Source: Stegostoma tigrinum (taxonomy: Eukaryota). Taken from it: DNA of 64,000 nucleotides. Both the position numbers and the translations under genes were made by a program. The DNA is taken from assembly GCF_030684315.1 (NCBI RefSeq), contig NC_081382.1, positions 19,512,592-19,576,591 of the forward strand, given 5' to 3'. A model generated the notes under the pieces. The model made no database searches and was not told the DNA's origin. It saw only the letters and a program-made list of their open reading frames with translations. Positions 11,711 through 58,489 of the stretch are shown here, one piece after another (the first letter of the stretch is position 1; every line of letters begins with the position of its first letter).

Positions 11711-13661
11711 ATATTTCATTGTCTGTTACACACCGTAGAACATACTAAGGTTGTGAAAAAGCAATTCTTTTTCCCTTTCTGTTTAATAATTTAATAGCAT
11801 TTACAGCCTACAAGAATATAAGAGCTAGAAGCGGGAATAGAAAATTTAGCCCCTCAAGCCTCCTTGCCATTTAGTAAGATCTCAACCTGAACCCCTATTT
11901 CCTGCCCACTCTCCATCATCCTTTGTCCCATGACTAATTAAATATTCATCTATCTCCTTGTTACATTAACTCAATACCCCAGCATAGATTTACAGCACTT
12001 TTTGAAAAGTGTTTCTCCTCATCTGTTTTAAATCTGCTACCCATTATCCCAAATCATATTCTAGATTACCCCACAATGAGGATATGTCGATTGTGTGGAC
12101 CCCTTTAGCATCTTCTATACTTTAGATCTCCTTTTTCTTTTAAACTTGACTTCCAATAGTGCAATGCATGCAGAAGCATGGGAGCAGACATATCCACAAG
12201 TTGACAAAATGCTCTTGTAGCCTCTCCTCAGATAGCGGAGGCACCTTAAAAGATCCTACAGCTGTAAGTTAAAATGGTTTCACTTGCCACTGATGTAAGA
12301 CTGAGTGAGATTCAACACTAGCTGAATTTGAAAGTAGACTTTGGGAACCTTCTATTCTTATTCCCTTGAGTTGAGCATTACTTAGAGCAAGAAAGAACAT
12401 GCTGTACTGGGTAAACAAGGAGGAAGGGACAGTACCGTAGCAATTCTCATCACGTATTCTGGAGGTAATTCCTCCTATATGATATAAAAGAAGAGCTGAA
12501 CACAATAAATACATGAACAACACTCTTTAAAGTAAAACAGTGCAAAAAGATAGTTACAAATATAACAGTTGTGCACCCAAATTCAAAGTTCTAGCATTTT
12601 ACATTTAAACAAGTGAAGTTCAACTACATCTTATGAACCTTTAGGGGAAGCCAATTTTGGGCAGAAATATCCAGGGACCTGAGCGATGCAGGCTGTGTAT
12701 AGGTTTGTGCAGAATCGGACAACAAGTCAGCTGTGGCCAATCTCAATGATGGGAACATCTCACTCCACCTTTCATGCTTTTGACAAATGGTGAGGTGAGT
12801 TCCTCACCAGGCAGTGGCAAGTTGCTAATGAAGAGGGATTATTGTTTCTTAATGGATCAACTTGGCCCATTAATATTCAGCATTCTATGTCACCAAACTA
12901 GTCAGACATTGAGAAAGTTTGACATGAAAGGCGAGCACATACCTGGTGGATTCAGATTGTTACTTGCTCTATATGACTGCAGCATTGGACACTGGCCAAC
13001 ATCATCTCAGGTCATGCTCTGACTCATACACCCCATGTTCACAAACATTGGCATCTTACATTGCCCAGCCTCTAAGAATCCTCAAGGCACATCTTCAATC
13101 TACTTGATTGCAGATTCTATACCTCAATCCTGCACGTCAGGCTGTACTGGCAATTCTCATTGTAATGTTGCTGTGAGGATACTTTGGACTTGGGAACAAG
13201 GCTGTATTTGAGGATTCTTTGCTACCTCTTGTGGCATTCACTCACTCCGGGCCTAGCCGGATGTTCAGCACATCCCTACCTTGCACCACCTTGCCTTTTT
13301 GCACTTTGCCCTCTCATGCAGATGTTGCCTAGTCTCAACTTAGGCAAGTTACACAACTCCAACCAGAACGTTATGAATGAATTTGGCCAGGTATCCCAAA
13401 GTGTTAATGCCAAAGTGATCAAACCAGTGTGAACGCAAATCGGTACCAATGCAGCGCAGTCCAAGCTTTATTAGGAACAAAGTTACAATTACCATAAATA
13501 TGAAACATACTATCTCTAATTCTATTTGGCATATTAAGGTTACAATAGTTCCTAAATCTCTTGTAGTTTTAGGCAGTTGCTCTCTCTGGTTCTGTCCCTG
13601 AATCTGTGAAACTGTCTTCTTACTATCTATCTCTGGGGATGATCATCTGGTCTCTGTTTCT

Positions 13662-14461
13662 AGGCCCCAAGATGACTTTCCACATTAAGCAGAGGTTCAC
13701 CTGCACATCTGCCAATGTGGTATACTGCATCCACTGTACCTGGTGTGGCTTCCTCTACATTGGGGAAACCAAGCGGAGGCTTGGGGACCGCTTTGCAGAA
13801 CACCTCCGCTTGGTTCGCAATAAACAACTGCACCTCCCAGTCGCAAACCATTTTAACTCCCACTCCCATTCTTCCGATGACATGTCCATCATGGGCCTCC
13901 TGCAGTGCCACAAGGATGCTACCTGAAGGTTCCAGGAACAGCAACTCATATTCCGCTTGGGAACCCTGCAGCCCAATGGTATCAACGTGGACTTCACCAG
14001 CTTCAAAGTCTCCTCTTCCCCCACCGCATCCCAAAACAAGCCCAGTTCATCCCCTCCCCCCACTGCATCCCAAAACCAGCCCAGCCTGTCTCTGCCTCCC
14101 TAACATGTTCTTCCTCTCACCCATCCCTTCCTCCTACCTCAAGCCACACCTCCATTTCCTACCTACTAACCTCATCCCACCTCCTTGACCTGTCGGTCTA
14201 CCCTGGACTGACCTATCCCCTCCCTACCTCCCCACCTATACTGTCCTCTCCACCTATCTTCTTTTCTCTCCATCTTCGGTCCGCCTCCCCCTCTCTCCCT
14301 ATTTATTCCAGAACCTTCACCCCATCCCCCTCTCTGATGAAGGGTCTAGGCCCGAAACGTCAGCTTTTGTGCTCCTGAGATGCTGCTTGGCCTGCTGTAT
14401 TCATCCAGCTCTACACTTTGTTATCTTGGATTCTCCAGCATCTGCAGTTCCCATTATCTCT
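13662..14461 (+). mobile_element. 5'-truncated Penelope-like retroelement: GIY-YIG endonuclease C-terminus plus terminal repeat
   Basis: FTCTSANVVYCIHCTWCGFLYIGETKRRLGDRFAEHL...VANHFN. In-frame TGA at 13924 (likely CGA>TGA), then RFQEQQLIFRLGTLQPNGINVDF. Ends in CATCTGCAGTTCCCATTATCTCT. Confidence 0.92.
14332..14363 (+). ncRNA. Minimal type I hammerhead ribozyme motif in the PLE terminal repeat
   Basis: CTGATGA-A-GGGT(CTAG)GCCC-GAAAC-GTC^AG has both conserved core boxes, stem II and a GUC triplet. Minimal hammerheads are an established PLE feature. Confidence 0.75.
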
Positions 14462-15544
14462 GCCTCTAGCCATGCTGGTCTCTTCAGAAGGCCTCAGACA
14501 ATTCAAGAAAGAGGCCTGCAGGTGATCCCTATTTTATACCTTTTAAATGGCTTTCTGGAACTTTAATTCTGGCCAATCAGGGAAATGCACTTAATTAGAA
14601 ATATTGTCAATCATTTGGATGGCATGCTATTGTTTTTTTTTTATGTATTAGGCCCTAGTGTCTTTCTGTCTGGACCCTCCCTTGTTTAGTGGATAAGTTG
14701 ATGGGGGTATGTCTGTCCAGGATATCTGTTGTTTTCTGCATTATTCTAATGTCATTAGCACCTGGCTGCTGCATTTGCACTGTGTCCGGTGTGTGGGTTT
14801 GGTGATTTCAGTGTTTTACTTTGCCAATGTACCCAGCATCCTTTGCTGTTTGGCCAAGTTAGCAATGTATTTGTATTTGAGCAGCCATGAGGCTGCTAAC
14901 AGAGCTACCAGGCTCATATTACTGCTGCCTTGCCATGCCATTTAGCGCAGACATAAAGGACGGAAACTGGTCGTGGCTGTTAGCGGGCCTTAGTCAAGTA
15001 AAGAGGGACAGCCTTAACTCAATGAGTCAATGAATCCTGGCTCAATTTGCCAAGGGTAGTTTTCAATGCCAAAATAGGCCTGACCAGGGTAGTCAGAGTC
15101 AGGATCCACTGAAGGGGAAAGAAGATAAACGCCAGCAGCTCCGTATCTGTCTTGACAATTTCTGACCTGTTCTGGGCTGTTCTTCTGGAATGAGAAGGAG
15201 GCAGTTGTAGTGGAAAAGGAAAGTGGGCGGCATAGCTGTTTCTTTTGACCAGGTGGGCAGCTGTCCCGAGCAAGTCACTGGGCAGTGCAGGGGTACCAGT
15301 TTTGGGTGGGTTGGGATAGGTGAGATCCAGTGAGGGAAAGTGTTACAGGCAATAGTGGGTGGTAGAGCATGAATCTTGGTGGGAGGTGGGTGCAGAAACT
15401 GATACAGTAAGTATAAAGTATCAGAAGGAAGATGGTGGTACTTAACTCTGACAGAGTGGAGAAACTCACTGAGCTTTTTCCTCCAGTGCTAGGCTTTCCT
15501 CAGATGGCTGAGATTGCTTTAACTTGGATGGCAACATCAGAGCC

Positions 15545-17900: not shown

Positions 17901-20199
17901 ATCAAAGAAAATGTGACATGATACCATACAAGGAGATATTAGGGCAAGTGATCAATAGGTTTGACACAGATCAGTGATTTTTGAAGTTTCTTTAAGGAAG
18001 GAGGAGGTGCAGAACTAAAGAGGTTTAGGCTTGGAATTTCAAAGATTGGGGCCTCCATAGTTTGAGACTTGAATATAATGGAGCATCTAAAATTGTGTTT
18101 AGCAAAACAAAAAGGACAGAAAGAAAAAGCACAGGAAAGTCAGAGAGTTATTGGACTGTGGAAAGCAAAGCAAAGAAATTTTTTAAACAATAAAGTGTGC
18201 AACAACTAGAATTCATATACTACTTTAATTGTACGATAACATTTTAAGGTTCTCCCTTTAAGACCCATCAAACAAAATTTGACACTCGGATTCCATAAGG
18301 AGGTCGCAGATGACCACTTGCTTGGTCAAACCAATAGGTTTTAAGAAATGTTGTAACCGAGGAGAAAGATGGGCAGAAGGAGAGAGATTAAGGGAGGAAA
18401 TTTCAAAGCTTACCTTCTCGACAAAACAAATATGACTTTCTCCCGGCTATTAAGGAACATGCACGTACCTACAGTACATTAAAAGCATTGGGAAGATTCT
18501 TTAATTGTACAAAAGCAAAATACTGCAAGCAGTAGAAATCAGAAATACATAGAAATTGCTGGAAAGACTTTTGCAAGTTTGAGTTGTGAAGAAAGGCTAT
18601 TGACCTGAAACATCTGTTTCTCCTTTCATGGTTGCTGAATGTTTTCCAGAATTGTCTCTTAATTTATACAATGGCTTCTCTTTTCTCTGGCCTCAGATCG
18701 GAGACTGCAAAGTCATTCGCTTTAATAACTCAACGTTGTTTAATCTTCTATTTCCGAAGATGTAGGCAATTTCTCAGCACCATTTTAATTATGATGTGAG
18801 TTGTGATAAATAATTAATTTATTTACTGCAATAAATAATTCTGACCCATTATAGTGTGAAATCTCACCTAACAAATTTAGCAGAACAGAATGCAACAGCT
18901 TGTCGATACGCAAATCTAACTGATGAAGATAAAGTTTTCAGAAATGGAACAGCAAGTTTAGTTCTGGATGTGGGACAGTATGTGCTTGTTTGCCAGGCCC
19001 TGGGTATAAACTTGGCTCTTTGAATATCTTCCACTATTCAACAAGATCATGGCTGATCTTCAGCCTCAACTCCACCTTCCTGCATCAATCCCATTTTCTT
19101 TAATTGAAGAGAATTACATGAAGTAAAGAATTTAGCATGAAAGCATAGAATAGCATAAGGCAGAAGGAGGCTGCTATAATTGAGCCTGTACCAGCTCCCC
19201 TGAACAACAATCCAGTTAGTTCTACTTCCATGTCAATGTTTTCTGTTTCAAATAGCTACCCATTTCTCATTTCAAAGTTATTGTTGAATCTACAAGGCTA
19301 TCACAGTGTGAATTCAAAAAGCTCACTGCTTGATTATGTTCAAGATTTTCCGCATGTTGCCTTTGTTTTTGTTTAGCCATCACTGCAAATTCTCTGGTTA
19401 TCAACTCCACATCCACTCAAAACAGTACTCTAACTCCTTTTGCCTGCCCCAGCCAGGAAAATGAGCCTGCATATGTGCAGGAGACTCTCAGCAGGCTTGG
19501 GTTCTATTGGTAAAATGGCATCGAGGAGCATCTGCCCACATCTTCCTGGCCAACAGAGCCAACCACAGAATGGGCTCCTTCCACTCCAGTTATTGGAAGT
19601 CAGGATTTCTCTTAGGTCTCGTGTGAGGGAGGAGAAGAAAATTTACCGAGGACATTTAACTATAAATAAATCTTTCAGTTTTGTACGTATATGTTCACTT
19701 TCACTGAAAATGTCTGCTGTAGTATACTTTTCACTGTTGGACCTGGTGAGGCCACACCCAGCTGAGATATGAACATCAACTTTAGACATCCCAGCATTGA
19801 AAGAAGAAGTTGTAATGGCCAAGCATTGCTCATCACCCTCAAGGAACTGACTCCTTGACTGTTGATAACCTCAGTCATCATAGATCCTTGGGCCATAATG
19901 ATGCTGTGTCTGCAGCCACTTTATTGTGCTCAACAATAAGGTAAGACACAACGAGCAGGGAATATGCTAGGGCCTGGCCTGGCCAAGCCCTTCCACACTT
20001 ACACACATATTTCGAGTGAGAGTAGGGAGCCGGTAATGATTTCACACACCTCTCAGGTCGGACGTACATTCCATGTATCAGCTTTTCAGGGGAGTGCACT
20101 GCGGTTCAAGACTGGGAGGTGTACAATGGCTGACTCACATGTCAGCTCTCCTCCCTTAGCTTGATGGTTTGTTGAGAAACACTGCACATGTTCGATGCT

Positions 20200-20390
20200 G
20201 AGATAAAGGTGTAGAGCTGGATGAACACAGCAGGCCAAGCAGCAGAGGAGCAGGAAGGCTGACGTTTCGGGCCTAGACCCTCGAAATGTCAGCCTTCCTG
20301 CTCCTCTGATGCTGCTTAGCCTGCTGTGTTCATCTAGCTCTACACCTTGTTATCTCAGATTCTCCAGCATCTGCAGTTCCTACTATCTCT
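20200..20390. mobile_element. Palindromic mini-PLE (inverted terminal arms) with a CpG-decayed ~14-bp TSD
   Basis: Arms 20200-20268 and 20283-20356 are reverse complements, followed by a ~35-nt tail. Flanks ACATGTTCGATGCT (20186-20199) and ACACGTTCAATGCT (20394-20407). Confidence 0.88.
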
Positions 20391-30400: not shown

Positions 30401-33400
30401 AATACCTTTCTGCTTTTCCCCCTCCATCCCCAGCTGACCCCTCTGATAGGCTGTCTGGGCGGGTGCCAAAATTAACTGCCTGCTTGCCAATATATAAACA
30501 AATAATTCAAGCTTAACTCAGCTTGTTAGATGAAAAACTACCCACACCATGGAAGAGCTGGGGTTGGTAGGCAAACTGGAGTTTGAAGGACATTTTCTAT
30601 GGTGAAAAAGTACTGAAGGAATGGGAAAACCACCTCAGGTCTGTCTTGAATACCTCAGGGTACTTTTCAAGATGTTACTCCCACTTCAGTACCATTTGCA
30701 CTCCAAGTCCCAGCCTCCACTTTACTCCCTTTCTGGGCTGTAGGAACCCTAGCTGCCCTAAAACTCCAGGATGTACCTTCACAAGCCTGTCATGTGCTTC
30801 CTGGTGCTGCTTCCTGTACTGCCAGTAGAAGCTAGCACTGGGGCTCATGAACCCCTCACAGGTAGCACCCCTGAGGGGCACAATATCTACCAATCAGGCT
30901 GCAAGACCATTTGGTACCCATCATGTCAGCTTCTAAGACATTCTTTCTGGAAGGCAGAAGAGAAGGAGGGATGCAGGAAGAGGTAAAAAAGAGTTTAAAG
31001 TGATATGCAAACAAACGAAAAGCAATTTGAGAAAAGACCTTTACACACAGTGAGTAGTTGGGATGTGGAATGCACTGCCTAGAAATGTGGTGGAGGCAAT
31101 CTCAACTGAGATATTGAAGAGAGCATTGGGTGATTCTTTAGACAGAAATGGTGGGTAGGAATGTGTGGAAGAGGCAGGATACTGGCACTAATGTTAGAGC
31201 TGGTGCAGGAATAAGCTCCTTCTGCACCATAATAATTGTGCAATTCTGTGAGAGACCACCCTCCAGGACAAAGCAGCCCATTTATTCTGATTGTCTCTCC
31301 ACAAATGCTGCCGTACATTCTAAAGTATTCCCAACATTTTCTGTGTTTAGTTTGGATCTCCAGAATCCACAGTGTCTTGCTGTTATACTTGTTTGTCTGG
31401 CAAATAATTAGTGACTTCATGCTGGAATAGAAAAAATGCCTGTAATCCATCCTACCATTTTGCACCGACTTTTAGAGTTGATTTATTCATTTACATTTCC
31501 TAATTAGATCCTGCTCCTTACTGCATCTATTTGCAATCTTACACTCTTCAATTCTGTCTTGTTATCATGTGCAGTTAATTTTCTTCCATCAGTTAAAGAA
31601 TGGTGCCTGCCAATGCGAAAACTCTCTGCTTTCAATGTTAACACTGAAACTTTGTCTGTTTTATTCAGTATTCACAAATATTTGAGAGTAGCTCGTTACT
31701 CCCGAGATTTTAAACAGCTAACAGAAATCATTTCAACAGGATATTAAAATAAAAAGGAGCATGATATTAAACAGATAATACAGCCCAAAAGACTGGCATT
31801 TCTTTGCAGATTGAAAAAAGTATTCAATCAAAATGATATTAATATATTCAAAGAAACCAGAAGGAAAGTGAAGTGGGAGAAAAATACTCCCATTGCGCTG
31901 AGAAGGTTTTCAAGCAGCAGTACTAGTACCAGTGATATAGCCACATGTGGCACACTAAGCTGTCCCTTTAAGGCCTCTTGAAGGTGAGTGTTGATGTGGC
32001 CGGACAGCTGTCTGGGAGGGACAGCACGGTGCAATAACTGGACCATGAACCATGGAGGGAGATAGCAGGAAGCATCGGCTTTCCAGTATGCCTTTGAGGG
32101 GAATTTGTTGCAGGTGGGAAAGGGAAGGCACAGAGTCTTCGTGTGAGGCCTGGGCACCCGATGGCACACTTGGAGAGTGGGGCAAGTAGAAATTCATGGT
32201 CTGTGGGGTGAATGCAAAAGAGGATAAAACCAGGAAAGATATGGATGTGAAGTATTGGGGTGATTACAGCACTACACAGATTAAAATAGCCAGGAATAAT
32301 GAGGGAATAAAGGGAATTAAGGAGCTGAATCTTTCCTTTTTTTGGCTAAGTCTGAGTTGCATCAAGTTGTTTGGACGGATTTCCACCGTGACACCCAGCA
32401 AAATTTCTGATCGTACCTTACCAATCACACCTCACTAACTACCTTGTCCTATGGCCTACCTCATGTCTGATTTCAGCCCCATGTTACCATTCCTGGGACA
32501 ACTGGCCATTCGTCAGATATCCCAGAATTCATAGGAGTCACTTGTACCAGGCTGATCTTTACAAGGCTGCTCTGCAGCCAGACAAGCGCTGTCTATCTGG
32601 ATTGCCCTGCATCACTCCTGACATTTGTCCCGGTTATGGTAGGCGGGGGCTTAATCAGTGCCCCACTCCATGTACAGGAACCTAGAATTCCTGCTGGATG
32701 GTGTGGTGCCAAGACAAGGCTTTCTCTTCCCCCAGACCAGCAGTGGAGGCGACACCAGACAATGTCTAACTGGGGGAGGTGATGTCCTCTCTAAGTGTAG
32801 TTTTTCAAACCTCGGATAAGCTCTACATGTGCAAAGTGACTCAATACGGACTTGGATTTTTCTGCCTGTAGCAAATTAGCAGAATTGTAGGCTCAGTAAG
32901 GTTCAAATTATGGGGATCTCAGCACTTTATTGATAATGGGGCAACGGCACCCACCGCCATCCCACAATATTTGGAAACCACAAGCTAAATGGAAGCAATG
33001 CCCCCACAATAGCCCATAGATTCAGAAGATGAATGAATCCAAAGAGGGGACTGCAGGTAGGGACAGGAGACAAGGATATTCCCGGAGCAGTTTCCTGAAG
33101 ATTTCAGCTCTCTGCGCGTTTGTTTTCATAGCTTAAGCTTCCCAGGTCTCCTGCATTCCTCAGTAGTGACCATCTCTTGAGAGATGCTCTGCTGTGATCA
33201 AGGAATTAAGAGACCAGGCCACTCCTTGTAAAATTGCGGAGGTGGGCTTCCTTTTCACCCCATTGTTGAGGTTCAGAGGCCTGTATTTAAACTCCTTATT
33301 CAGGAAGCGATTGTTTCCTATCAGCAATACCCTTGCTGCAAAGTTTTGTATTCTTGTTAGAACGACCAATTTGGATTAGATATACTCCTGTAGGTCTTAA

Positions 33401-33854
33401 TCAAATTGCAGCCTCTCTTCAATTTGCTTTTATAATGAATAGGCCAAAGCGGGCGTTGAAGTTTAAAATAGGTCTTCCCAAACCACAATCCCTCAGTGTG
33501 AGTGCCAGCTGGAATTTTGGGCTTGTTACCTTTAAAACAGGCTTGGCTGCTGTGGAGCTCCTGGGCAGTGGTAAAAGCTGAACTGCCCCTTTAAATGCTT
33601 GCCTGTGTTTTGAAATAGTAGGTATGCCTAACTGGCCAACCCTTGAGGCTTGATTGATGTCTTGCAAAACTCTGTGGAAAGTAAAGATGCTTCCGAAACA
33701 AAAATTGTGAATTAAACAGTTCTATCTCCCAGGTCTGCAAAAAGGAACTGCTGCTTTTCAGCCTTTTAAAATCATCCTTTATATCTGCCACTCTTTCTCA
33801 GATGGTTCAATGTGCAATGGCAATAATTCTGGTCTGAGAACTTTAAAACCCTGC

Positions 33855-34345
33855 TACAAAATCATGAGATGTACAGAAGGGGTTACTGTAAGGTGTTTTT
33901 TTCGCTAGGGTGGAGGATTTCAAGTCTAAGGGACACATTTTTAAGGTGAGAGAAGAGAGATTAAAAAAACCACGATAGGCATTTTTTTCACACATAGAAT
34001 GATTGGCTGCTGTGGAGCTCCTGGGCAGTGGTAAAAGCTGAACTGCCCCTTTAAATGCTTGCCTGTGTTTTGAAATAGTAGGTATGCCTTGGCCAGTTAG
34101 GCATACCTACTATTTCAAAACACAGGCAAGCATTTAAAGGGGCAGTTCAGCTTTTACCACTGCCCAGGAGCTCCACAGCAGCCAAGCCTGTTACAACATT
34201 TAAAAGACACTTGAATAAGTATATGAATAGGAAAGGTTTGGAGGGATATAGGCCAGGAGCAGGCAAGTGGGACTAGTTTAGGTTGGGATTATGTTTGGCA
34301 TGGACTGGTTGGACGGAAGGGTCTGTTTCTGTGCTGTATCACTCA
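33855..34345 (+). mobile_element. CR1 LINE 3' fragment interrupted by a templated hairpin insertion
   Basis: CR1 3' sequence (TTTAAGGTGAGAG...TTTTTCACACA | ACAACATTTAAAAGACA...GGGTCTGTTTCTGTGCTGTA) on both sides of 34003-34192. Confidence 0.85.
34003..34192. repeat. Perfect hairpin (87-bp stem, 9-nt loop) made of direct plus inverted copies of 33536-33639
   Basis: 34003-34089 equals 33543-33629; 34089-34192 equals the reverse complement of 33536-33639. Confidence 0.95.
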
Positions 34346-34750
34346 GTGATCCTAAGAAAGGTCAACTGATCCATCAAACCTTATGTATCCGGTGTACTGA
34401 ATCCATTATATCTTCCACAAGAAGGTTTAAACTCCTTTCATCAATCCCTCAATATGGATCTAATCTCACTTGGTGTATGTTGGGACATTGCATTGTATTG
34501 TTACCACCGCTCCAGCCGAGAAACCATTTTACCCATAGTTTTCAAATTGGTCTATTTGCATTTACTTTCCTTAACCTCAATCCCAATCCTCTTCACATAA
34601 AAATATCAGTGCATCTTACAGTCATTCAATGACTGATCAAAGTTTTCAAGTGTTTAAAAAGCAGGCAAACGTTTTATTTTAAACCTCGTAGGGGCAATGG
34701 ATTTGAAAACACGACTTTGTTTAATTGCCATAGCTGTTAGTGATTCCACA

Positions 34751-34764
34751 TTGCCCTCTAGCGG
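34751..34764 (-). promoter_or_regulatory. CTCF core motif
   Basis: Minus-strand CCGCTAGAGGGCAA fits the CTCF core consensus and lies in non-repetitive DNA. Confidence 0.6.
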
Positions 34765-36650
34765 AAAGCAGATGCACATCGGCAGAAAAAAAATGACTCA
34801 ATCATGAAAAAGGATTGCAGCATTCTCTCAGTCTTCACGGGGACATGTAGTGAATATAAAATCTTACATTCAAGTGTAAGACGAATGTATTACTATATTG
34901 CATTAAAGGATACTTAATAATAAGTAATTTTGGCTATTAAGTTCAGGATACTACAGATTCTGCCTGCCTGCTCATTTCTGGTGAATGTAAAGGAATGTCC
35001 TATGAAAAGAGGGATACCCGGTTAACACACACTTTTCACTAATATGAGTTCAGGGAAATTAATAAATCCTTCCAGTTTAATTTCAAGGCATGTCGCTATT
35101 TGGAATAGGCCGGCTAATACACTGTAAAGCTCAAGAAATACTACTGCATTAAACTGCTGTGAATGTTTTTTGGAAGTAGAAACTTTAAAACAAAGTATTC
35201 CAAGTATGCTTGTGCAAGATTTTGACTGGCAGTAAAATTAGTTAATTACACTACTCAAGCAGCTGCTATACCTTGTATCTAACTCCCAAATCATTTTTAA
35301 AAATGTAAAATAGCTGACAAACTGTTAGCTAAGAACACTAAGCCCCAGGATTTAATACATTTGTTTCATGAGCCAACAGTGAAAGGATTTTCTCTATTGA
35401 AAATGGATAGCAAGGAAAAACACTTAATTTTTACAGGTTCATAATCCATGATTAAAAGCAAAGTGTAGAAAGTTGACTATAGATCTTTAAAGAATGCTAA
35501 TTGGGTTTTTAATCTAATCAGATTCCTTTCATTTTATGCCAAAATAGCTTGAAATCAAAGACGCAGACCTAGCAAGGTACCAACATTATCCTGAAAAAGT
35601 ATTGTTAGTGAAAAGAGCAGCACAAACCATAAAAAACAGTGGCCATTGGAAATCGTACAACTAACGGTTTGATTGCTGCCATCAGCCCTGAGAATGAACT
35701 GACAGAAGTGGCTGATTTCAATATCAGCAAGCTTACTGATTGTGCATGAGAATGTGCATCTCTTTCTTCAGTGCACTATCGAAAATGCACAGAAATGATA
35801 TATTGTGCAGTCTGACTTGTAGATTATATTATCATTAAATGTAAAAGTGAGATTACCTCACTTTCATTTCTCATATTTGGTTATTGAGTGTGCAGGATTT
35901 TGGGGTAAGCTTGGTGGGATAGTGAATCTCCTGGTTACTATCGGGAGGTCCAGGCTGTGTGTAATTGGTAATCGAAGGGATCATTTGAGTGCATGCACTC
36001 ATTCAAGGATTCTTATCTGCTGGGGCATTGTCTACCAGTTTGCTTCAAGTGTTTTTTGAGTTCCATAACCGCCTTCCTTGTGAAAAGTGCCTTAGAGATC
36101 TATTTTTGGTGATATTTTGACTCTATTCATCTTGAAAGTCTGATCCCGCTTTGTAATAAGGAAATCTAGTAGAACATTAGAAAATATAAAAATTCCACAT
36201 TAGCAGCAAGCAGTAAAACTCACAATGCTAAGTAACACTGCTATGGCTGTAAAGAATGATTCTGACAATGCCATGTTGAAATTCCCAGATTGTAACCTTG
36301 AAGGCAAAATTGTCAAAGAGTGTTCACTTTTAAAATCAAACAGTTCCTCAGTGTTCAGAGACAAGCTACTTGTGTCAAATTAGGTTTTTGTAACTTTTTG
36401 TAATGATCATACATTTTGGTAACACTCCAATCATGTGTCTTCATGTGATACTCTGAATAGAGCCAAACAGTCAATATCTCAAATAAATTGCATGGTAACT
36501 GACAGAGTCTTACAGCCAGGAAAACAAAAACTCAATCTAAACCAGTAATTATATCTGTATTTCCAACATATTTTGAATTTCTACAAAGTCAAAAAATTAA
36601 GTGGATGAGGTTGCAAAGTTTAAGCAAGGTTAGACATCAAAAAAATCTGA

Positions 36651-43304: not shown

Positions 43305-43502
43305 AGAGATAGTAAGAACTACCAATGCTGAAGCCTGAGATAACACAGTGTGGAGCTGGAGGAACACAGCAGGCCAGGCAGCATCAAAGGAGCAGGAAAG
43401 CTACCTTTTTGGATCGGGACCCTTCTTCAGAAACATCAGCTTTCCTGCTCCTCTGATGCCGTCTGGCCTGCTGTGTTCATCCAGCTCTATGCTGCGTTAT
43501 AT
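43305..43502. mobile_element. Palindromic mini-PLE, older copy
   Basis: Inverted arms meet at a degenerate hammerhead (GGATCGGGACCCTTCTTCAG|AAACATCAGC); flanks TTCTCAAAG and TTCTCGAAG. Confidence 0.82.
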
Positions 43503-47149: not shown

Positions 47150-48260
47150 TTCATAGAGTCATAGAACACAGAAACAGACCCTTCATTCCAACTTGTCCAT
47201 GCTGACCAGACATCCCAAACTGATCAATTTGCCAGCACTTGGCCCATATTCCTCCAAACCCTTCCTACTATGGTACCCCATCCACATGTCTTTTAAATGC
47301 TGTAATTGTACCAGCCTCCACCACTTCCTATGGCAGTCCTTCCATACACGCACCACCCTCTGCATGATAAAGTTAACCCTCAGGTCCTTTTCAAATCTTT
47401 CCCTTCTCAGCTTAAACCTATGCCCTCTAGTTTTGAAGTCCCTCACCCTGGGAAAAAAAGCTCTGGCTAATCACCTAATCTATGCCTCTCATGATTTTAT
47501 TAATCAATATAAGTTCACTCCTCAAACTCCCTGTAACTCAAAACCTCCAGTCCCAGAAACATGAATCTTTTCTGCAGTCTCTCAGGTTTAATAACATCCT
47601 TCCTACAGAAGGGCAACACAGTATTCTAAAAGTGGCCTCATCAATGTCCTGTAAAGCCACAATGTGGCATCTGAACTCCTAAACTTAATATTCTGACAAA
47701 TGAAGGCAAGCACACCAACTGCATTCTTCACCACCTTGTCCACCTACTCCACTTTCAAGGAGCTATGCACCTGCACCTCTTGGTCTATTTGTTTGGCAAC
47801 ACTTCCCAGGGCCCTGCCATTGAGAGTGCAAGTCCTGCCCTGATATGCCTTACCAAAATGCAGCACGTCATATTTATCTAAATTAAACTCCATCTGCCAA
47901 TCCTCAGCCCATTGGCCCATCAGGTCAAGGTTCCATTGTACTCTGAGTTAACCTTCTTCACTGCCCACTGCACCACCCATTTTGGGTGTCATCTGCAAAC
48001 TTACTAACCATGCCTCCTATATTTACATCCAAATTATTTATATAAACAATGAAAAGCATTGGACCCAGCACCGATTCTTGCTCATCACAAGCCTACAGTC
48101 TGAAAAGCAATCCTCTACCACCACCCTCTGCTGCCCACCTTCAAGCCAGTTTGGTATCCAAATGGCTGGCTCCCCCTAGATTCCATGTGATCTAACCTTA
48201 CTAACCAGCCTCCCATGTGGAACTTTGTTGAAATCTTTGCTGAATTCCATATTGACAATC
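47150..48260 (-). mobile_element. CR1 LINE 3' fragment (1.1 kb)
   Basis: FKTRGHRFKLRRERFEKDLRVNFIMQRVVRVW; (CATAGAGT) tail; similar to 21350-22822. Confidence 0.9.
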
Positions 48261-50905: not shown

Positions 50906-50987
50906 ATGGCGAGTCAGTCGCAGGGGATTCAGCAGCTGCTTCAGGCCGAGAAACGGGCGGCGGAGAAAGTGGCCGAAGCTCGGAAGC
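50906..50987 (+). CDS. ATP6V1G1: V-type proton ATPase subunit G1, exon 1
   Basis: MASQSQGIQQLLQAEKRAAEKVAEARK(R); 82 nt; donor C|GTGAGT. Confidence 0.97.
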
Positions 50988-51197
50988 GTGAGTGTCTGCC
51001 CTTTCCTGCAAACTACCTCAACATAAAGCTTGGGGAAGAGGAGCACGGAGGGTCTCCTTGTCGAAAAAAAAACACCGTGATTCCGTGACCTCGGGAGTCA
51101 GCTGTGGGGCGGCTTGGAGCTGAGGCCCAGCCACATCCCGGCGCTCTCACAGACTGCTACTCTGTCCTGCAGTCGCTAACCTGAGGGCGTTCCCGTT

Positions 51198-54100
51198 TGC
51201 TGTGTCACTCCCCCCCCCCCCCCGCTGTGTCACTCCCCCCCCCCCCCCGCTGTGTCACTCCCCCCCCCCCCGCTGTGTCACTCCTTCCCCCCCCCCGCTG
51301 TGTCACTCCCCCCCCCCGTGTCACTCCCCCCCCCCGTGTCACTCCCCCCCCCCCGTGTCACTCCCCCCCCCCGTGTCACTCCCCCCCCCCGTGTCACTCT
51401 CCCCCCCCCGTGTCACTCTCCCCCCCCCCGTGTCACTCTCCCCCCCCCCGTGTCACTCTCCCCCCCCCGTGTCACTCTCCCCCCCCCCGTGTCACTCTCC
51501 CCCCCCCCCGTGTCACTCTCCCCCCCCCCCGTGTCACTCTTCCCCCCCCCCGTGTCACTCTTCCCCCCCCCGTGTCACTCTTCCCCCCCCCCGTGTCACT
51601 CTCCCCCCCCCCGTGTCACTCTCCCCCCCCGTGTCACTCTCCCCCCCCGTGTCACACTCCCCCCCCCCCCGTGTCACTCCCCCCCCCCGTGTCACTCCCC
51701 CCCCCGTGTCACTCCCCCCCCCCGTGTCACTCCCCCCCCCCGTGTCACTCCCCCCCCCGTGTCACTCCCCCCCCCCGTGTCACTCCCCCCCCCGTGTCAC
51801 TCCCCCCCCCCGTGTCACTCCCCCCCCCGTGTCACTCCCCCCCCCGTGTCACTCCCCCCCCCGTGTCACTCCCCCCCCCCGTGTCACTCCCCCCCCCCCC
51901 CGTGTCATTCCCTCCCCCCCCCCCCCAACTGCACGGCCCCCTCCCCCCCGTGTCACCCCCTCCCCCCCCCAACTGCACGGCCCCCTCTCTGCTGTGTCAC
52001 CCCCTCCCCCCCCCAACTGCACGGCCCCCTCTCTGCTGTGTCAACCCCTCCCCCCCCCAACTGCACGGCCCCCTCTCTGCTGTGTCACCCCCTCCCCCCC
52101 CCAACTGCACGGCCCCCTCTCTGCTGTGTCACCCCCTCCCCCCCCCAACTGCACGGCCCCCTCTCTGCTGTGTCACCCCCTCCCCCCCCCCAACTGCACG
52201 GCCCCCTCTCTGCTGTGTCACCCCCTCCCCCCCCCAACTGCACGGCCCCCTCTCTGCTGTGTCACCCCCTCCCCCCCCCAACTGCACGGCCCCCTCTCTG
52301 CTGTGTCACCCCCTCCCCCCCCCCCCAACTGCACGGCCCCCTCTCTGCTGTGTCACCCCCTCCCCCCCCCCCCCCCAACTGCACGGCCCCCTCTCTGCTG
52401 TGTCACCCCCTCCCCCCCCAACTGCACGGCCCCCTCTCTGCTGTGTCACCCCCTCCCCCCCCCAACTGCACGGCCCCCTCTCTGCTGTGTCACCCCCTCC
52501 CCCCCCCCAACTGCACGGCCCCCTCTCTGCTGTGTCACCCCCTCCCCCCCCCCAACTGCACGGTCACCCCCTCCCCCCCCCAACTGCACGGCCCCCTCTC
52601 TGCTGTGTCACCCCCTCCCCCCCCCAACTGCACGCCCCCCTCTCTGCTGTGTCACCCCCTCCCCCCCCCAACTGCACGGCCCCCTCTCTGCTGTGTCACC
52701 CCCTCCCCCCCCCCCCCCCCCCCCAACTGCACGGCCCCCTCTCTGCTGTGTCACCCCCTCCCCCCCCCAACTGCACGGCCCCCTCTCTGCTGTGTCACCC
52801 CCTCCCCCCCCCAACTGCACGGCCCCCTCTCTGCTGTGTCACCCCCTCCCCCCCCCCAACTGCACGGCCCCCTCTCTGCTGTGTCACCCCCTCCCCCCCC
52901 CCAACTGCACGGCCCCCTCTCTGCTGTGTCACCCCCTCCCCCCCCCAACTGCACGGCCCCCTCTCTGCTGTGTCACCCCCTCCCCCCCCCCCCCCAACTG
53001 CACGGCCCCCTCTCTGCTGTGTCACCCCCTCCCCCCCCCAACTGCACGGCCCCCTCTCTGCTGTGTCACCCCCTCCCCCCCCCCAACTGCACGGCCCCCT
53101 CTCTGCTGTGTCACCCCCTCCCCCCCCCAACTGCACGGCCCCCTCTCTGCTGTGTCACCCCCTCCCCCCCAACTGCACGGCCCCCTCTCTGCTGTGTCAC
53201 CCCCTCTCCCCCCCCCCCCCCAACTGCACGGCCCCCTCTCTGCTGTGTCACCCCCTCCCCCCCCCCCCCCAAACTGCACGGCCCCCTCTCTGCTGTGTCA
53301 CCCCCTCCCCCCCCCCCCAAACTGCACGGCCCCCTCTCTGCTGTGTCACCCCCTCTCCCCCCCCCCCCCCAACTGCACGGCCCCCTCTCTGCTGTGTCAC
53401 CCCCTCCCCCCCCCCCCCAACTGCACGGCCCCCTCTCTGCTGTGTCACCCCCTCCCCCCCCCCAACTGCACGGCCCCCTCTCTGCTGTGTCACCCCCTCC
53501 CCCCCCCAACTGCACGGCCCCCTCTCTGCTGTGTCACCCCCTCCCCCCCCCAACTGCACGGCCCCCTCTCTGCTGTGTCACCCCCTCCCCCCCCCCCAAC
53601 TGCACGGCCCCCTCTCTGCTGTGTCACCCCCTCCCCCCCCCAACTGCACGGCCCCCTCTCTGCTGTGTCACCCCCTCCCCCCCAACTGCACGGCCCCCTC
53701 TCTGCTGTGTCACCCCCTCTCCCCCCCCCCCCCCAACTGCACGGCCCCCTCTCTGCTGTGTCACCCCCTCCCCCCCCCCCCCAACTGCACGGCCCCCTCT
53801 CTGCTGTGTCACCCCCTCCCCCCCCCAACTGCACGGCCCCCTCTCTGCTGTGTCACCCCCTCCCCCCCAACTGCACGGCCCCCTCTCTGCTGTGTCACCC
53901 CCTCCCCCCCAACTGCACGGCCCCCTCTCTGCTGTGTCACCCCCTCCCCCCCAACTGCACGGCCCCCTCTCTGCTGTGTCACCCCCTCCCCCCCCCCCCA
54001 ACTGCACGGCCCCCTCTCTGCTGTGTCACCCCCTCCCCCCCCCCAACTGCACGGCCCTCTCTCTGCTGTGTCACCCCCTCCCCCCCCAACTGCACGGCCC

Positions 54101-54210
54101 TCTCTCTGCTGTGTCACCCCCTCCCCACCCCAACTGCACGGCCCTCTCTCTGCTGTGTCACCCCCTCCCCCCCCCCCAACTGCACGGCCCCCTCTGCTGT
54201 GTCACCCCCC
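51198..54210. repeat. Two-domain C-rich minisatellite in ATP6V1G1 intron 1
   Basis: About 51198-51910: unit GTGTCACT(C)n (~18-22 nt). About 51927-54210: unit AACTGCACGGCCCCCTCTCTGCTGTGTCACCCCCT(C)n (~42-50 nt). Confidence 0.98.
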
Positions 54211-54441
54211 CAGCTGTGTCCACCCCCCGCCCCCCCGTTTCATACTTCCATCGTGCATCTCTGCTGCCTCTCAATAACCCCAGTTCACTCCCACTTGTTG
54301 TTTCCACCCATCCAATTCTACCATGCACTCCTGCTCCTGGTCCTCCCCCACCCCACCAGCTCTGCTCTCTTTCCTCTTCGCCACCTCATTCTTTGTTTTA
54401 CTTGGTTAAAAACTGATGGCCTGTATACACTCCAATTATAG

Positions 54442-56078: not shown

Positions 56079-56604
56079 TTTCCAGAAAAAATCAGTTTTC
56101 TTTTGAGGAGGAGTTCCGAAGGTATGAACATCTGAGAGACAATGTCTGCTTATCTATTTTAAATGGCCATCTCCTGTTTTTTTTAATAAATAGTGACCCT
56201 TAGTTTTAGATTTCCTCACAAGAGAAATCGTTTTCTAGATCTATGCTGTTGAGACATCTCAATCTTTCATTTCAATCAAGTTGCTTCTTACTCTAAATTC
56301 CAGCAGATACAAACCTAACTTGTTCACTCCTTTACTCCTAATACAGCCTGTCAATTCCAATTATTAGTCTAGTAAAACTTCACTGAACTTCTTCCAATGT
56401 ATTTTCATCCTTTTAAATGAGGAAATCAATACTGAACAGAATACTGCTGAAGTCTCAACGATACCCTGTAAATCTGAAACGTAACCTCCCTACCTTTTGT
56501 ATTCAATTCTGCTTGCAATAAACAAGATACTACTTTTGGCTAGATAATAAAATGTGAGGCTGGATGAACACAGCAGGCCAAGCAGCATCTCAGGAGTACA
56601 AAAG

Positions 56605-56636
56605 CTGACGTTTCGGGCCTAGACCCTTCATCAGAG
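56605..56636 (-). ncRNA. Minimal hammerhead ribozyme motif, antisense copy
   Basis: Reverse complement of CTGATGAAGGGTCTAGGCCCGAAACGTCAG. Confidence 0.72.
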
Positions 56637-57372
56637 AGGGGGATGGGGGGAGGGAACTGGAATAAATAGGGAGAGAGGGGGAGGCGGACCGAAGATGGAG
56701 AGTAAAGAAGATAGGTGGAGAGGGTGTAGGTGGGGAGGTAGGGAGGGGATAGGTCAGTCCAGGGAAGACGGACAGGTCAAGGAGGTGGGATGAGGTTAGT
56801 AGGTAGCTGGGGGTGCGGCTTGGGGTGGGAGGAAGGGATGGGTGAGAGGAAGAACCGGTTAGGGAGGCAGAGACAGGTTGGACTGGTTTTGGGATGCAGT
56901 GGGTGGGGGGGAAGAGCTGGGCTGGTTGTGTGGTGCAGTGGGGGGAGGGGATGAACTGGGCTGGTTTAGGGATGCAGTAGGGGAAGGGGAGATTTTGAAA
57001 TTTTTGAGATTTTTCAAAATCTCCCCTTCCCCTACTGCATCCCTAAACCAGCCCAGTTCATCCCCTCCCCCCACTGCACCACACAACCAGCCCAGCTCTT
57101 CCCCCCCACCCACTGCATCCCAAAACCAGTCCAACCTGTCTCTGCCTCCCTAACCGGTTCTTCCTCTCACCCATCCCTTCCTCCCACCCCAAGCCGCACC
57201 CCCAGCTACCTACTAACCTCATCCCACCTTGACCTGTCCGTCTTCCCTGGACTGACCTATCCCCTCCCTACCTCCCCACCTACACCCTCTCCACCTATCT
57301 TCTTTACTCTCCATCATCGGTCCGCCTCCCCCTCTCTTCCTATTTATTCCAGTTCCCTCCCCCCATCCCCCT

Positions 57373-57404
57373 CTCTGATGAAGGGTCTAGGCCCGAAACG
57401 TCAG
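57373..57404 (+). ncRNA. Minimal hammerhead ribozyme motif, sense to ATP6V1G1
   Basis: CTGATGAAGGGTCTAGGCCCGAAACGTC^AG, identical to 14334-14363. Confidence 0.72.
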
Positions 57405-58315
57405 CTTTTGTACTCCTGAGATGCTGCTTGGCCTGCTGTGTTCATCCAGCCTCACATTTTATTATCTTGGAATCTCCAGCATCTGCAGTTCCCATTATCT
57501 CTGATACTACTTTTGGCTTTCCTGATTACTTTTGTTTTACTTTCGCTTGGCTCATTTAGGACCCATACATTCAGTCCTTCCACCAATGTCGTTCTTGAAA
57601 ATTGTAAAATGTTTGAGGTCTAGCACTGACCCCTCTGTCACATCACTTATTACACTTTGCTAACCAGAAAATAATCTGTTTATGTTCATGTTTTATTCCG
57701 TTAGCTGCTTCGTCTTTGGATACCCGTAACATCACTTCCATGCTTTAAATTTTTAACCTCTGAATATAAAGGCTAGCATTCCATTAGCCTTTAATTATTT
57801 TGTCTATTCATGACATTTTAAAATGATCAACCTTGTCCTCTTTGAGACCTCGCTGTAGTTTTTCCACAATTTAGCTAACCTTTTTGAACACCAATTTTGC
57901 TTGTACTGAAATACATTCGATATAGCTTTGTCCATTTATTTAAGCAATCAGTATCTCATTATGACTAATTAAATTTCTGCTTTGTTACTTGTTAAGTATC
58001 CTATTTGAAAGAGGCGGGACATTTATTTTTAAAGTTTTAGTAGTTTGATCTCATAGGGCAGGGGTGACAACCACTGTTCCTGGATCAGAAAAGAAATGTT
58101 AGGTTCTCGTCTCTCTCCTGATCTTGAGACAATCTCTCATTTGCTGGCAAATCAATTTTGAAATGGAATTTGATTTTTGGATATGTATTGGCTATGATCT
58201 TTGATAATCCATAAAATTTTCTGAAAGGAATGTGACTTTCCACTTCTGTGAAGAGTTCAATATGATTCTTGCTTATGGAATTGAAAATGCTTGATGTTTC
58301 TACATTCCTTTTCAG

Positions 58316-58489
58316 GCACTTGGTTCACATGGTGATTCTGCAACGGAAGTCGACAAAGACACCCAAGAGAAAATTAGGAACATTGGAGCAAGCTACGAAC
58401 AGAACAAGGAAGTTGTCTTGAATAATCTTCTTGGTTTAATCTGTGACATTAAACCAGAAATTCATGTAAACTTTCGCATTAATGGTTAG
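58316..58489 (+). CDS. ATP6V1G1: V-type proton ATPase subunit G1, exon 3 (terminal)
   Basis: Acceptor TTCCTTTTCAG|; ALGSHGDSATEVDKDTQEKIRNIGASYEQNKEVVLNNLLGLICDIKPEIHVNFRING*. Exons total 82+101+174=357 nt, i.e. 118 aa. Confidence 0.97.
   Translation, partial: ALGSHGDSATEVDKDTQEKIRNIGASYEQNKEVVLNNLLGLICDIKPEIHVNFRING

Follow-up and report, generated by a model that had tools for sequence, protein, structure and literature searches.

The window analyzed here, a stretch of 64 kb, contains the first coding exons of two divergent genes. One is represented by a minus-strand exon that encodes a harmonin-N-like domain and begins near position 982 (512-982); we take this gene to be whirlin-like. The other encodes the G subunit of the V-ATPase, for which two plus-strand exons were located, one at about 50906-50990 and the other within 58295-58486. 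A long and perfect hairpin has its site between the first coding exons of this pair, at distances of about 32 and 17 kb.

Several further repeats occur in the window. Just inside the first intron of the V-ATPase G gene, positions 51199-54228 are occupied by C-rich tandem arrays (an 18-nt unit repeated 34 times and a 44-nt unit repeated 51 times), which are strongly skewed and contain spurious ORFs of 1000 aa in three frames. A 929-nt palindrome at 56542-57467 is 98% perfect and consists of two inverted copies of a repeat that is also found at 14011-14462, next to a weak GIY-YIG ORF (13573-13926); this palindrome presumably corresponds to a Penelope-type inverted end structure. Older, imperfect palindromes at 20198-20358 (87%) and 43340-43500 (79%) belong to one small repeat family.

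The hairpin was delineated in the assembled sequence by self-comparison of the window. A direct repeat of 87 nt (33543-33629 and 34003-34089) and an inverted repeat of 104 nt (33536-33639 and 34089-34192) are each 100% identical, and the shorter tract is wholly nested inside the longer one. An earlier note on this DNA had described the first segment as recopied and then followed by the reverse complement of the second, and this description is exact to the base. The arms, at 34003-34089 and 34099-34185, form a perfect 87-bp stem with a 9-nt loop, so that the hairpin spans 34003-34185 (Table 1). When folded as RNA, it reaches -180 kcal/mol (z = -23.7), and none of 200 shuffled sequences was as stable; the hairpin is far beyond chance. 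The distance of 460 bp given previously is correct as the start-to-start spacing of source and direct copy, but not as a gap, because 364 bp separate the end of the source from the insertion. The exact copies at this distance bear out the claim that the insert was templated locally.

Within the window, the best match of the source other than its copies in the insert is 14 nt. Outside the tandem array, the window contains 55 exact repeats of at least 22 nt, of which only the three that belong to this event touch 33536-34192. By our reading of the self-comparison, the others sit in interspersed-repeat intervals. No second event of the same kind was found in the 64 kb.

Table 1. Coordinates of the source, the insert and the surrounding host repeat (window positions).
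Feature	Position	Strand	Remarks
Source tract, template of the insert	33536..33639	+	104 nt; single-copy DNA; bridged by one contig in X1, X2 and X12
4-bp inverted repeat, 33626-33629 / 33646-33649	33626..33649	.	Outer arm 7 nt past the end of the copied tract; possible, unproven fold-back primer
Left part of CR1-like host LINE remnant	33860..34003	+	69% identity to the paralog at 47388-47496; very high family depth
Insert arm 1, direct copy of 33543-33629	34003..34089	+	Would be the product of fold-back if read on the minus strand; overlaps the host by 1 nt at 34003
9-nt loop, reverse complement of source 33630-33638	34090..34098	.	1-nt overlap at the turn (34089)
Inverted copy of the entire 104-nt source	34089..34192	-	Arm 2 (34099-34185) and 7 nt that are unpaired; overlaps the host by 2 nt at 34191-34192
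Right part and 3' end of host LINE remnant	34191..34344	+	74-79% identity to four paralogs in the window

The flanks of the insert (33860-34003 and 34191-34344) are parts of one interspersed repeat, which is 69-79% identical to paralogs in the window and is present at very high copy number in all four of the runs compared below. From its sequence, the host family appears to be the 3' end of a LINE. The names CR1 and shark-type HER1 are presumptive labels for it. One window paralog has a weak match to RVT_1 in one of eight ORFs (E = 0.0024, below the cut-off), and loose ends of family contigs indicate 3' ends that run into an 8-nt tandem unit. An octamer motif is described as a CR1 feature (PMC4316615). 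HER1 is only listed in PMC3747384, as the LINE that partners a SINE of sharks and rays.

Alignment with these paralogs also gives the amount of host DNA that was lost. Estimates are available from three of the four paralogs, and amount to 47 bp (22-kb paralog), 46 bp (47-kb paralog) and 38 bp (50-kb paralog); the 62-kb paralog, which has no homologous left flank, provides no estimate. About 47 bp of this older LINE remnant are therefore missing between 34003 and 34191, as had been proposed with a figure of roughly 50 bp, and the return to the host is clean and collinear. A target-site duplication is absent from the insertion site, where there is a deletion instead. The consensus of loose ends from about 250 family contigs at 34190 resembles the missing host part; family loose ends also occur at 34339-34344.

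To date the event, the copies can be compared with a relative, termed organism B, in which a 476-nt contig spans 33288-33767 and differs by 27 substitutions and 6 gap letters. Twenty-one of the 27 substitutions are listed individually, and five of these lie within the source; the source thus differs at no fewer than 5 of 104 positions, compared with 27 of 474 overall. Conservation of 33536-33639, which the earlier note had proposed examining, is accordingly no greater than that of the flanks. The three copies in the window have no substitutions among them, and all carry the alleles of this species at each of the five listed source positions that differ in organism B. Because the copies are identical at positions where organism B differs, the copying is younger than that split. 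If the event were as old as the split, the probability of observing no differences would be 0.0008, and a simple clock places the upper bound on its age at about 0.4 of the organism B divergence. On this sequence evidence the event appears to be young, and the contrast between identical copies and a source with at least five differences agrees with the earlier claim of recency.

The arrangement of the tracts suggests how the insert could have been made. Read on the minus strand, it begins with a 104-nt run that matches the plus strand of the source, turns over 9 nt, and then copies 87 of the 94 available bases again, stopping 7 nt before the start of the run. With the shorter tract contained in the longer one, the minus strand requires only one copy in trans, plus a self-templated fold-back. 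Our preferred reading is that a local DNA copy of 104 bases folded back, was recopied over 87 bases and replaced about 47 bases of the LINE remnant, which would make the insert a likely recent, private or polymorphic scar of double-strand-break repair. We give this reading somewhat better than an even chance.

In brief, the proposed process would begin with a break in the LINE remnant and the loss of about 47 bp. No G-quadruplex motif was found by a regular-expression search of 32001-36000, so that nothing points to a G4 as the cause of the break. A single strand matching the plus strand of 33536-33639 would be made by a processive polymerase or released by replication. Its 3' end would then fold back over a 9-nt loop and copy 87 of 94 available bases, stopping 7 nt short of the 5' end of the strand. 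Finally, the hairpin, with its ends side by side, would be captured at the break by end joining, and replication would fix the palindrome. That copying nearly ran off the end mildly favors a free, self-primed single strand that was captured later.

The junctions themselves say little about the enzymes involved. They have overlaps of 2, 1 and 1 nt, for which the probability by chance is about 0.09; overlaps within chance do not allow the enzymes to be read from the junctions. The terminal pair at the turn has a probability of 0.0001 in the equilibrium fold, which counts against the fold-back step. The 4-bp inverted repeat near the end of the copied tract has a pairing probability of about 0.1 in a DNA fold, and such a 4-bp partner is present at 8% of window positions. 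The idea that this repeat acted as the primer and was displaced by a later 7-nt insertion in the source is not supported, as organism B has no listed indel there.

Whether the insert is real can be addressed in part with assembled contigs. A search of runs listed 24, of which four, all of the same species and from one study, shared at least half of the words of the region (0.85-0.89). None of the runs listed as sharing these words is an RNA run, which has no bearing on expression. Words found only in the insertion make up 86 of 2040, and word shares therefore cannot decide carrier state. Contigs were compared for X1 and X2 (both of the same species) and, from among the runs with small word shares, X12 and X15. 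In each of X1 and X2, 33000-33959 is spanned without a break by one contig of 1623 nt that has one difference, and a 2358-nt contig is identical to 34320-34800, so that near the site the assembly departs from these contigs at 1 position in 960 nt and at 0 in 481 nt. The one difference, at 33364, is A in both X1 and X2 and G in the window; it is either a phasing marker or a base error. X1 and X2 are perhaps not independent, as they come from one study and have contigs of identical sizes. Depth over the source is that of single-copy DNA in X1, X2 and X12.

Among the records listed for the contigs of these four runs, none carries any of the three junctions, and none of these records shows a locus-specific empty allele. 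At the 85% likeness setting used, each run contributed about 30,000 paralog contigs, and these displaced locus-specific joints. Bins at 34037-34158 are uncovered in all four runs, and those at 33549-33853 in X15, and none of the listed contigs joins across; such holes prove nothing. Three exact copies of 87 nt should split a 31-mer graph at the tract ends, and the X1 and X2 animals are therefore probably not homozygous carriers. Assemblers may prune a heterozygous insert, and contigs show presence rather than absence, because variants get dropped. The unbroken source contig fits a non-carrier or a pruned heterozygote, and equally an error in the assembly. The insert is thus private, heterozygous or an assembly artefact.

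The last of these possibilities is the most serious alternative, although we consider it doubtful. It holds that a chimeric molecule, polishing or gap-filling put local sequence into a repeat that short reads resolve poorly. The X1 and X2 contigs agree with it in being unbroken across the source and in both differing from the window at 33364, as do the location of the insert inside a high-copy repeat and the perfect identity of the three copies. Whole-genome amplification is described as yielding inverted chimeras with deletion (PMC4060946), and fold-back reads as making up about 0.6% of nanopore genomic reads (PMC12870357). However, the long-read fold-backs of the latter report are near-symmetric palindromes of whole reads and are virtually absent from HiFi data, and fold-back of a read leaves unexplained both the three junctions and the return to the host 47 bp further on. 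Moreover, the window contains no N, resolves a 2.3-kb tandem array, agrees with conspecific contigs nearby and has no other such event, and contigs that drop variants cannot show that the insert is absent.

A real event could also have arisen through three inter-strand switches at a stalled fork (of the MMBIR/FoSTeS type) on the plus strand, or through polymerase theta, and we judge this to be unlikely. On the plus strand, synthesis would jump back 460 bp, copy 87 nt, cross to the other strand 10 nt further on, copy 104 nt in reverse and rejoin the host 47 bp downstream. This path is compatible with the sequence; germline events with several switches and nearby templates have been described (PMC8421209), and short-range cases are reported to be frequent in ape genomes (PMC7954356). 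It nevertheless requires two copies in trans, and leaves unexplained the nesting of the tracts and their ends within 7 nt of each other. Homeology at the junctions is also unremarkable: at the entry points that were scored, 5, 3 and 5 of the last 10 nt match, and at least 5 would be expected in 9% of random pairs.

Polymerase theta is not supported; the tract length and the distance are beyond its described range. Its primary tracts are rarely longer than 10 bp and its templates typically lie within 30 bp (PMC7165422), and insertions of up to about 30 nt are reported (PMC11724301). The insert resembles snap-back SD-MMEJ and templated insertions by polymerase theta in combining a deletion with a locally templated insert and a snap-back inverted repeat (PMC5728401, PMC7165422, PMC11292364). 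In contrast, its tracts of 87 and 104 nt are about 10 times longer, and its template, at 364 bp, about 10 times further away than is typical. Efficient stem-loop extension by this enzyme needs two terminal base pairs (PMC11292364), whereas one is present at the turn. Of the earlier proposal of polymerase theta or MMBIR-type repair, the first part therefore fits poorly in tract length, distance and priming, while switching of the second type is possible, if unlikely.

The closest described structure is the double inverted (or distant inverted) insertion seen in yeast break repair by Yu et al. 2024 (PMC11724301). There, two overlapping fragments of the same locus are inserted in inverted orientation (median, 50 bp); the junctions are about 2-20 bp apart, the outer ones overlap by 0-4 bp and the inner one has microhomology of 2-11 bp, and such insertions were shown to arise within single ssDNA molecules. 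The present insert likewise has two overlapping, inverted fragments of one locus at a break (33543-33629 forward and 33536-33639 reversed), a short junction gap (9-10 nt) and outer overlaps (1 and 2 nt) within the yeast range. It differs in its inner overlap, which is 1 nt, and the 4-bp repeat could serve only with an additional loss of 7 nt. Other differences are an overlap tract of 87 nt, a donor 364 bp from the break instead of elsewhere in the genome, a host deletion of about 47 bp, and its occurrence in an animal assembly rather than at induced yeast breaks. Three of the four testable features of double inverted insertions, a class also defined by dependence on end joining and a replicative polymerase, are present, and the insert works like this class without being a textbook member (PMC11724301). 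Tracts of 87-104 nt from 364 bp away, together with overlaps at chance level, argue against polymerase theta and fit double inverted insertions.

Other classes share some of these characteristics. Complex templated insertions are ordinary human germline variants, accounting for 33 of 103 calls in one person and 26 of 99 in a second (Osia et al. 2021; PMC8421209). Like this complex MMB-TI class, the insert has nearby templates, both orientations and junction overlaps of at least 1 nt; unlike it, the template is 364 bp away, compared with a search within 100 bp in that study, the microhomology does not exceed chance, and self-templating can account for the second tract. Hairpins made in one step by template switching are known, and some have become miRNAs (10.1101/2023.04.19.537475; PMC7954356). 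One event yields a perfect hairpin in those cases as well, but they are four-point events in which one inverted fragment is made in place, whereas here a further copying step would be needed and both arms lie away from the source. Class 2 templated sequence insertion polymorphisms (PMC5110952) are also break patches that show microdeletion and microhomology and lack poly(A) and target-site duplication; they derive from distant donors, inverted pairs are not described in the passages compared, and polymorphism is only putative here. Judged by titles and the beginnings of abstracts, none of the papers listed by a literature search (15 of 38) concerns templated insertions in sharks; most subscription journals lie outside that search. 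In sum, the insert belongs to a known class, brings no new mechanism to light and shows no sign of a function.

A MITE-like palindromic mobile element, or a hairpin-RNA gene under selection, is a very improbable alternative to a one-off scar: the source has the depth of single-copy DNA in X1, X2 and X12 and is not unusually conserved, and the site lies between genes and has a deletion instead of a target-site duplication. The perfect stem would suit a hairpin-RNA gene, and six of nine sub-threshold Rfam matches are to miRNA models, the best at 50.3 bits against a gathering score of 93; these are what any perfect stem would draw, and no family reached its gathering score in the window, which counts against such a gene. 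The 87-bp stem is more than twice the approximately 35 bp preferred for miRNAs, and, unlike the de novo miRNAs attributed to template switching, the hairpin has a far longer stem and is not in a known intron (10.1101/2023.04.19.537475). These same points leave the earlier functional suggestions, an siRNA or miRNA precursor among them, without backing.

The palindrome would be neutral and is probably unstable. Cruciform formation and instability are plausible for a palindrome of this kind. If the insert is false, it is a small assembly error. If it is real, it is a clean and readable case of fold-back templated insertion in the germline of an animal, its tracts being longer and its template further off than is usual for polymerase theta, and it would provide a possible population marker and one datum on the survival of long, perfect palindromes. 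As a long shot, it may be that a free, self-primed ssDNA fragment was captured to give a newborn, still-segregating perfect 87-bp palindrome, a vertebrate germline equivalent of the yeast double inverted insertions. Were this true, and were the palindrome transcribed, it would at once supply small RNAs directed against the region from which it was copied.
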